This document shows, one piece after another, positions 7,845-9,673 of a stretch of 64,000 nucleotides of DNA. Every line of letters begins with the position of its first letter. The first letter of the stretch is position 1. Made by a program: the position numbers and the translations under genes. Location: the NCBI RefSeq assembly GCF_056712565.1, contig NZ_CM160072.1. One strand, given 5' to 3'. Under the pieces are notes generated by a model that was not told where the DNA came from, ran no database searches, and saw nothing but the letters and a program-made list of their open reading frames with translations.

Positions 7845-8081
7845 ATGTTGCAACGTACGCTGGGCAGTGGCTGGGGAGTGTTGCTGCCGGGATTGCTGAT
7901 TGCAGGGCTGATGTATGCGGATTTATCGCCGGATCAATGGCGGATTGTCATTCTGATGGGATTGGTATTGACGCCGGTGATGCTGTATCACAAACAGTTA
8001 CGGCATTACGTTTTGCTACCATCGTGCCTGGCGCTTATTGCTGGCATCATGCTGATGATAATGAATTTGAATCAGGGGTGA
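7845..8081 (+). CDS. yjjZ: Small inner-membrane protein YjjZ
   Basis: ORF-track frame 7734..8081; start placed at internal ATG 7845 (MLQRTLGSGWGVLLPGLLIAG, 78 aa) from memory of K-12 YjjZ; two predicted TM helices. Confidence 0.75.
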   Translation: MLQRTLGSGWGVLLPGLLIAGLMYADLSPDQWRIVILMGLVLTPVMLYHKQLRHYVLLPSCLALIAGIMLMIMNLNQG

Positions 8082-8119
8082 TAAAACAGTGACGAGACAA
8101 GAAAAGAAGTAAAGATAAT

Positions 8120-8206
8120 TGGTGCGAGGGGGGGGACTTGAACCCCCACGTCCGTAAGGACACTAACACCTGAAGCTAGCGCGTCTACCAATTCCGCCAC
8201 CTTCGC
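8120..8206 (-). tRNA. leuV: tRNA-Leu (anticodon CAG), 87 nt including CCA
   Basis: Reverse complement reads GCGAAGGTGGCGGAATTGGTAGACGCGCTAGCTTCAGGTGTTAGTGTCCTTACGGACGTGGGGGTTCAAGTCCCCCCCCTCGCACCA; long variable arm typical of tRNA-Leu. Gene name assigned by order. Confidence 0.9.
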
Positions 8207-8240
8207 ACAGTCATCTTACTTTTTTTGATATCGCCTCGTT

Positions 8241-8327
8241 TGGTGCGAGGGGGGGGACTTGAACCCCCACGTCCGTAAGAACACTAACACCTGAAGCTAG
8301 CGCGTCTACCAATTCCGCCACCTTCGC
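8241..8327 (-). tRNA. leuP: tRNA-Leu (anticodon CAG), variant copy
   Basis: Same 87-nt sequence as neighbours except one base (window position 8280, a instead of g; C to U in the tRNA variable arm). Confidence 0.85.
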
Positions 8328-8355
8328 CCAGTGCGAGCAATATCAACGTGGTTTT

Positions 8356-8442
8356 TGGTGCGAGGGGGGGGACTTGAACCCCCACGTCCGTAAGGACACT
8401 AACACCTGAAGCTAGCGCGTCTACCAATTCCGCCACCTTCGC
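8356..8442 (-). tRNA. leuQ: tRNA-Leu (anticodon CAG)
   Basis: Identical to the 8120-8206 copy; promoter-proximal member of the three-gene tRNA operon. Confidence 0.9.
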
Positions 8443-8641
8443 ATACCATCAATTCTTAAAAAGAATTGCTACCACGGAGGCGCATTCTAGTGGTTTTCAG
8501 CTTTTCGTCAATAGTTAATTATCGACAGAGGTGTAATTGCTGGAAAAATATCCATCAGCGGATTGTGGATAATTCGTTTGTCGGTCAGATAAGGCGTGTA
8601 CGCCGCATCCGACACGGTATGCGGCGACATATATCAGATAC

Positions 8642-9673
8642 TCAACCTTTCTTCGCCTGGCGGGTCATAATGGCGCGATACACCTTGAAGCGCCCGGTTT
8701 GCGCGATCACTTCATGGAAGCCAAATGTCTCATCCAGCACGTCCGGGTAAGGCAGGAAGGCGTTCGCTACAATTCGCAACTCGCCGCCGCTGTTCAGATG
8801 ACGCACCGCGCCGCGAATCAGCGTTTGCGCGGCATCCAGGCTGGTTTGCATCCCATCGTGGAACGGCGGGTTGGAGATTATCATATCAAAGCGACCTTTC
8901 ACCTCGGAAAAGACGTTGCTGGCAAAGACTTCACCTTCAACACCGTTGGTCGCAAGTGTTGCGCGGCTGGCTTCTACCGCTGGTGCAGAAACATCACACA
9001 GAGTGAGGCGGATCTTCGGTGAATGGCGCGCAAAAGCAACGGAAAGCACTCCCGCGCCGCAGCCGACATCCAGCACTTTACCTTTCGTGTGTGGAGTTAG
9101 CGTCGAGAGCAGCAACTGACTGCCGACATCCAGACCGTCGCGGCTAAACACGCCCGGCAGTGTTTTGACCGTCAAGCCATCGACGCTGTATTCGCCCCAG
9201 AATTTATTGGCATCAAATACCGGCTGCTTTTCCAGACGACCAAAATAGAGGCCGCAGCGACGGGCGCTGTCTACCTTATTCAACGGCGCATAATCGGCCA
9301 GCATCTGCTCGGCGATGCGCACGCCGCTGCGGTTCTCGCCAACGACAAAAATATCCGTGCCCACCGGAAGCAGAGAAAGTAAATTCATCAACTGGAACTG
9401 GGCTTCCGGTTTGTTCTTCGGCCAGTAGTAGATCAGCGTATCGCAATCTGCGACATCATTCGCCGTGGCGACCAGGCTAAAACGGGCGTTATCCCCCATC
9501 TGGCGGCTTAACACCTGCCAGTGGTGGAATTGCTGGGTATGAGCACGGCTGGCCGCGGTATCTAAACGCGCGGGCAGGTCATCCTGTAAGTCTCCGGCAA
9601 ACAGAATACGGCTTTGTTCGAAATCATCACTGTGACGCAGCAAGACTTCACTTGCCGGGGTAAATGCAGACAT
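8642..9673 (-). CDS. rsmC: 16S rRNA (guanine1207-N2)-methyltransferase
   Basis: 343-aa ORF; SAM motif [13 protein letters not shown] and NPPFH catalytic motif. Confidence 0.95.

Follow-up and report, generated by a model that had tools for sequence, protein, structure and literature searches.

The tRNA-Leu(CAG) array and its operon

The window, that is, the whole stretch of 64,000 nucleotides analyzed here, contains exactly three tRNA genes according to an ARAGORN search of the full 64 kb, and each of them is a tRNA-Leu(CAG) gene on the minus strand. The genes lie in tandem on the strand of rsmC, between rsmC and yjjZ, as judged from the annotated K-12 and CFT073 regions and the open reading frames of the window. 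The anticodon cag was placed by ARAGORN at position 35, within a 7-nt loop, in all three copies, and the Rfam tRNA model RF00005 assigns 48.5 bits to each of them with a full-length model match (1-71), the gathering score being 29. Each gene is 87 nt long with the CCA encoded, and 86 of the 87 columns in their alignment (sense orientation) are invariant. The sole differing column is 48, where copies 1, 2, and 3 in transcription order have C, T, and C, respectively; no difference exists between the outer two copies. Nucleotide 48 of the middle copy corresponds to window position 8280, at which an A on the plus strand gives U in the tRNA. A previous sequence-only reading of this DNA had reported the three copies and the base change at these positions, with identical outer copies and a single C to U change in the middle one that turns a G-C pair of the variable arm into a G·U wobble, and all of these points are borne out by ARAGORN, the alignment and the variable-arm hairpin described below (C/U48-G55). 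The features of the region are listed in Table 1.

Table 1. Features of the tRNA-Leu(CAG) array and its surroundings (positions are those of the window)
Feature	Position	Strand	Basis or remark
yjjZ (DUF1435), convergent flanking gene	7845..8081	+	Annotation of identical CFT073 and K-12 regions; tblastn
3' trailer without terminator hairpin	8082..8119	-	Literature: presumed Rho-dependent terminator region
Third tRNA-Leu(CAG) gene, leuV equivalent; C at nt 48	8120..8206	-	ARAGORN, alignment, Rfam; identical to K-12 leuV
leuP-leuV spacer, 34 nt	8207..8240	-	Identity with K-12; spacer comparison
Middle tRNA-Leu(CAG) gene, leuP equivalent; U at nt 48	8241..8327	-	ARAGORN, alignment, Rfam; identical to K-12 leuP
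Variant base, U in the tRNA, partner G55 of the variable-arm stem	8280..8280	-	Alignment, hairpin fold, isodecoder pair counts
leuQ-leuP spacer, 28 nt, AAAACCACGTTGATATTGCTCGCACTGG	8328..8355	-	76-100% identity across Enterobacteriaceae arrays
First tRNA-Leu(CAG) gene, leuQ equivalent; C at nt 48	8356..8442	-	ARAGORN, alignment, Rfam; identical to K-12 leuQ
5' leader of the polycistronic transcript, start approximate	8443..8477	-	Contains 8-bp hairpin 8450-8468 (inverted repeat)
-10 hexamer TAGAAT, then G+C-rich GCGCCTCC	8484..8489	-	Consensus scan; identity with K-12
-35 hexamer TTGACG, operon promoter	8506..8511	-	Consensus scan; stretch onward through the array identical to K-12
rsmC (16S rRNA m2G1207 methyltransferase), upstream flanking gene	8642..9673	-	Annotated regions, window ORFs; array adjacency conserved across Enterobacterales

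Each gene also carries a run of eight C (C72-C79) in the 3' strands of the T-stem and the acceptor stem, which appears on the plus strand as G runs at 8127-8134, 8248-8255, and 8363-8370. Such C runs of tRNA-Leu genes are extreme indel hotspots in mutation-accumulation work (PMC8510543). Versions of the tRNA-Leu genes with 85, 86, 88, or 89 nt are present in several public assemblies, and either homopolymer errors or true slippage may account for these odd lengths.

The promoter-like arrangement TTGACG-16 nt-TAGAAT at 8511-8484 on the minus strand matches the consensus at 10 of 12 positions. It is followed by GCGCCTCC, presumably a stringent-control discriminator of the kind found in stable-RNA promoters. 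A literature search on the leuV promoter and Fis gave nothing usable. The leader, which separates the promoter from the first tRNA, can form a perfect 8-bp hairpin on the minus strand (8450-8468), with the arms CAATTCTT and AAGAATTG and a 3-nt loop. Further upstream, in the gap between rsmC and the promoter (approximately 8560-8640), there is a palindrome CGCCGCAT...ATGCGGCG at 8601-8626, which looks like a REP element; a second such palindrome appears to be present in K-12.

A terminator scan of the minus strand gave no intrinsic terminator after the last gene. In K-12, Mohanty and Kushner described leuQ-leuP-leuV as a single transcript whose tRNAs are separated solely by RNase P, which also removes the leader, and they presumed termination to be Rho-dependent, since no Rho-independent terminator structure is recognisable downstream (PMC2190699). 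The polycistron, its separation by RNase P and the presumed Rho-dependent end are assumed to hold for the window as well, because its sequence is identical to that of K-12. It should be noted that the 3' trailers of leuQ and leuP are swapped in Table 1 of that paper relative to its own text. The window agrees with the text, having AAAACC after leuQ (8328-8355) and AACGAG after leuP (8207-8240).

The variable arm and the identity elements

Whole-tRNA minimum-free-energy folds did not yield a cloverleaf for either allele. Therefore, the structure was assigned from the Rfam model alignment, the isolated variable-arm hairpin and the pair counts on 20 distinct Enterobacterales tRNA-Leu(CAG) isodecoders. 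Here, nt 48 is given in linear numbering and lies at about position e12 of the standard scheme by our own count, while the nucleotide 48 of the Levitt pair is U59 in this tRNA. The variable region (nt 45-59, 15 nt) consists of a 4-bp stem, G46-C57, U47-A56, C/U48-G55, and C49-G54, with a UUAC loop. Among the 20 isodecoders, the stem register is paired in 100% of cells, and 47:56 shows one compensatory change, from U-A to C-G. Position 48 is limited to C or U facing an invariant G55, and the same holds for position 49. The isolated hairpin has a predicted free energy of -5.2 kcal/mol with C48 and -2.3 kcal/mol with U48, that is, the U·G version is weaker by 2.9 kcal/mol, and this predicted difference could be relevant to folding or stability.

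The leucine identity elements, found by inspection with our own count to standard numbering, are present and the same in all three copies, namely the discriminator A84 before the CCA, A15, U59 (standard 48), G18, and G19. They correspond to those listed for E. coli, which are A73, the A15-U48 Levitt pair and G18G19 (PMC9976931). Leucylation of E. coli tRNALeu depends on A73 and the tertiary core but shows no correlation with how the long variable arm is composed or folded, and variants without this arm are still active (PMC9976931). The middle copy does not look like a pseudogene or a decaying gene: it scores the same as its neighbors, keeps the pair as U·G, and has an allele conserved across genera.

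All three genes also have an A5·C79 mismatch in the acceptor stem (for example, window positions 8438 and 8364 in the first gene), which was flagged by cmscan and is already known (PMC4105747). The same position, 5/79, is G·U in Morganellaceae and C·C in some Enterobacter-like arrays.

Identity with K-12 and known status of the base

Then, do the copies differ in K-12 as well? The leuQ, leuP, and leuV genes of the window are identical, copy by copy, to their counterparts in MG1655, including U48 in leuP. K-12 leuP (b4369) has the same 87 nt with U48, the same neighbors with C48 (leuV, leuP, and leuQ lying there between yjjZ and rsmC), and the same spacers, promoter and rsmC/yjjZ flanks. Our alignment with K-12 contains no difference over a stretch that begins approximately 90 nt before the -35 hexamer and ends 14 nt beyond leuV, the first difference being at alignment column 693. 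Outside the operon, however, the gap between rsmC and the promoter is longer by approximately 70 bases in K-12, whose 3' trailer also differs at several positions. In addition, a 601-nt region spanning the array recurs with 100% identity in dozens of genomes that were sequenced independently, UTI89, CFT073, LF82, and IHE3034 among them, and the annotation of these genomes likewise gives three tRNA-Leu genes beside yjjZ. Judged by its sequence, the locus is the ordinary E. coli leuQ-leuP-leuV operon.

The fourth K-12 gene of this tRNA, leuT, encodes the same tRNA species and is identical in sequence to leuQ and leuV, thus with C at nt 48. Unlike the array, it belongs to the argX-hisR-leuT-proM operon, a separate locus outside the window, which is processed through RNase E (PMC2190699). 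As in tRNA isodecoder genes generally, the U48 and C48 genes share the anticodon and the identity elements, with one pair-preserving substitution in the body. They are a minimal case of isodecoders, a single transition in a stem unread by the synthetase.

The sequence-only reading had taken the K-12 copies to be identical, which is mistaken, for leuP of MG1655 has the U in our comparison with K-12 leuVPQ. The difference between leuP and the other tRNA-Leu1 genes has even been stated explicitly (PMC12472396), and a tRNA-sequencing preprint lists (leuP) apart from the identical set (leuQ leuT leuV) (10.1101/2020.02.21.958157). The legend of Figure 5 in another paper loosely terms the leucine genes identical (PMC2190699). 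Consequently, U48 is the reference leuP allele, already documented, and is neither an error nor a strain marker.

A re-sequenced MG1655 genome (NZ_CP025268.1), unlike NC_000913.3, has C at nt 48 of leuP together with a 9-C run in leuV. Either gene conversion in the laboratory or an artefact of assembly could explain this deviation.

Array states within E. coli

The identity bands of megablast alone are unable to separate a single mismatch, so paired 82-nt queries were used, each composed of the 3' part of the tRNA, with either U or C, and the leuP-leuV spacer. On the assumption, a tool behavior that we infer, that an exact word across the site is needed and that G and T runs are masked, a U48 copy followed by the leuP-leuV spacer occurs in 4,836 of the 5,426 complete E. 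coli genomes (approximately 89%), and U48 is matched anywhere in 4,841 of them. In the same search, a C48 copy in the leuP context was found in 138 genomes, while approximately 585 of the 5,426 (approximately 11%) appear to be without any U48 gene. The median number of places per genome is one for the U query and three for the C query. The matches of U48 in the leuV and leuQ contexts give lower bounds only, for the trailers differ by phylogroup and partial matches fall into the top identity band.

Several states other than C-U-C were identified. C-C-C was checked in the sequence for O55:H7 CB9615, and it is indicated for ETEC H10407 by a C48-query match rather than by reading the sequence; the re-sequenced MG1655 genome with the 9-C run in leuV also has C-C-C, its quality being uncertain. 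U-U-C is matched by at least 15 genomes, two of which were verified from the fetched loci. Fetched loci also gave C-U-U in strain SF-173 and a two-gene C-U array in strain 2022E04-002. These array states are the traces of gene conversion in both directions and of unequal recombination. In this sense, the suggestion of the sequence-only reading that the base makes the copies distinguishable was well founded, as nt 48 marks conversion and deletion of the array across E. coli genomes.

In O157:H7 strains and a few other E. coli, only one tRNA-Leu gene, with C48, is left of the array between rsmC and yjjZ. Of 59 chromosomes sampled at even spacing, five had such a single C48 gene, O157:H7 strains being among the five, and the remaining gene was checked in the sequence as C48 for O157:H7 strain 9234 and the poultry strain E1. 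We take O55:H7 to be the ancestor of O157:H7. Since O55:H7 has C-C-C, homogenisation in this lineage seems to have preceded the collapse of the array in O157:H7.

Distribution beyond E. coli

A cross-species scan was performed over one genome per species with a U48 24-mer as the query. It retrieved at least 120 stretches, and by design only DNA containing U48, so that it is uninformative on how frequently U48 has been lost outside E. coli. At least 27 of the loci have exactly the three sequences of E. coli in the order C-U-C, and among the matches listed U48 is in the middle copy in at least approximately 35 arrays. The taxa with U48 in the middle include E. albertii, Salmonella enterica subsp. 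arizonae, Citrobacter, Klebsiella, Raoultella, Kosakonia, Phytobacter, Pseudocitrobacter, and Intestinirhabdus. The C-U-C arrays adjoin rsmC, usually together with yjjZ and fhuF, and their spacers are homologous, with 74-100% identity. Based on the adjacency to rsmC and the homologous spacers, the arrays can be regarded as orthologous.

U48 also occurs, instead or additionally, at leuT of the Arg-His-Leu-Pro operon, in at least approximately 37 loci, for example in K. pneumoniae, Enterobacter, and E. whittamii. Among the matches listed, these three have U48 at leuT and no U48 adjacent to rsmC, which is the reverse of E. coli. In Morganellaceae (Xenorhabdus, Photorhabdus, Proteus, and Morganella), the array adjacent to rsmC has two genes, one U48 and one C48. 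The U48 allele is therefore far older than E. coli and was present before Escherichia separated from Salmonella, Citrobacter, and Klebsiella.

Interpretation

We consider it very likely that nt 48 represents an old, inherited and pair-preserving difference between paralogues, probably near-neutral, which is occasionally erased or spread by gene conversion. The sequence facts, the identity with K-12, the distributions and the preservation of the helix come from the present analysis. They are consistent with the following course. The three tandem genes for tRNA-Leu1, with the anticodon CAG that reads CUG, would be transcribed together from a strong sigma-70 promoter, which lies downstream of rsmC, and RNase P would cut the resulting polycistronic RNA into the individual tRNAs; both co-transcription and RNase P processing are taken from the literature. 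In leuP, the normal allele of the species has U for C at nt 48 of the variable-arm stem, so that C-G becomes U·G and the pair is kept. The product of leuP would be a fully functional, near-neutral isodecoder. The difference would be inherited vertically, with U48 occasionally erased, copied or deleted as the genes of the array convert one another or recombine unequally.

The U48 tRNA is most likely functional and near-neutral, because the pair is kept and E. coli LeuRS makes no use of the variable arm, the latter point again coming from the literature. Therefore, the view of the sequence-only reading that the change is probably neutral was a reasonable one, near-neutrality being most likely and a conclusion drawn from these two points. 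At the same time, among the matches listed, C-U-C is stable across genera despite the conversion seen in E. coli, and a two-state site left to drift might be expected to be somewhat less conserved.

Could the U at 8280 simply be peculiar to this DNA? The sequence-only reading had thought of a sequencing error, and 87-nt repeats could in principle confuse a short-read assembly, although no other support for such an error was found. The explanation can be given practically no credence, for dozens of genomes match the 601-nt region at 100%, and the same base is present in K-12, in approximately 89% of the complete E. coli genomes (about 4,836 of 5,426) and at the middle position in many other genera. 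The identity with K-12, UTI89, CFT073, LF82, IHE3034, and other genera effectively refutes it. A recent strain- or lineage-specific mutation marking the isolate would fit the supposition of identical K-12 copies and the loosely worded "identical" in the legend of PMC2190699. However, such an origin is hardly conceivable and is refuted by U48 in K-12 leuP and across genera, as the U is found in K-12 leuP and in the orthologous middle gene of E. albertii, S. enterica subsp. arizonae, Citrobacter, Klebsiella, Raoultella, and Kosakonia.

The question of selection deserves more weight. The U48 isodecoder might be kept because one tRNA-Leu(CAG) species whose variable-arm helix is weaker would be of benefit to the cell, for instance through a different stability, processing of the polycistron, production of fragments or susceptibility to tRNA-targeting nucleases. 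The distribution offers this idea some support. In at least approximately 35 arrays next to rsmC, from many genera, the gene with U48 is again the middle one, though the spacers have diverged by up to approximately 25%; many genera have U48 at leuT too or only there (K. pneumoniae and E. whittamii, for example, among the matches listed); one U48 and one C48 gene stand side by side in Morganellaceae; and exactly one U48 gene is frequent, the outer copies being almost always C among the matches listed. However, approximately 585 of the 5,426 E. coli genomes appear to be free of U48, including the successful O157:H7 with its single C48 gene as well as O55:H7 and ETEC H10407 with C-C-C, and conversion has also produced U-U-C and C-U-U, so that neither state looks strongly favored. 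Moreover, the variable arm is not read by LeuRS (PMC9976931), and the cross-species sample was chosen for the presence of U48 (at least 120 stretches), which inflates the apparent conservation. On balance, maintenance by selection appears unlikely. It is just as improbable that U48 is a non-neutral, second isodecoder long kept by Enterobacterales, usually one per array and at a fixed position. If this were true, the weaker helix would give the tRNA a distinct stability, a place of its own in the order of RNase P maturation, a different fragment formation or an escape from tRNA-targeting toxins.

The difference is real and goes beyond chance. As an old and probably near-neutral difference between paralogues, the base nevertheless carries little weight as a discovery, for it is the reference leuP allele and is in the literature already. 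It does correct the common belief in four identical tRNA-Leu1 genes, which has found its way into a published figure legend, and nt 48 lets tRNA-seq and variant callers separate leuP from leuQ, leuV, and leuT. That C-U-C has persisted for so long across genera is a modest curiosity of evolution. For E. coli, nt 48 is a built-in marker of concerted evolution, which records two-way conversion as well as the loss of genes, step by step, that left O157:H7 with one.
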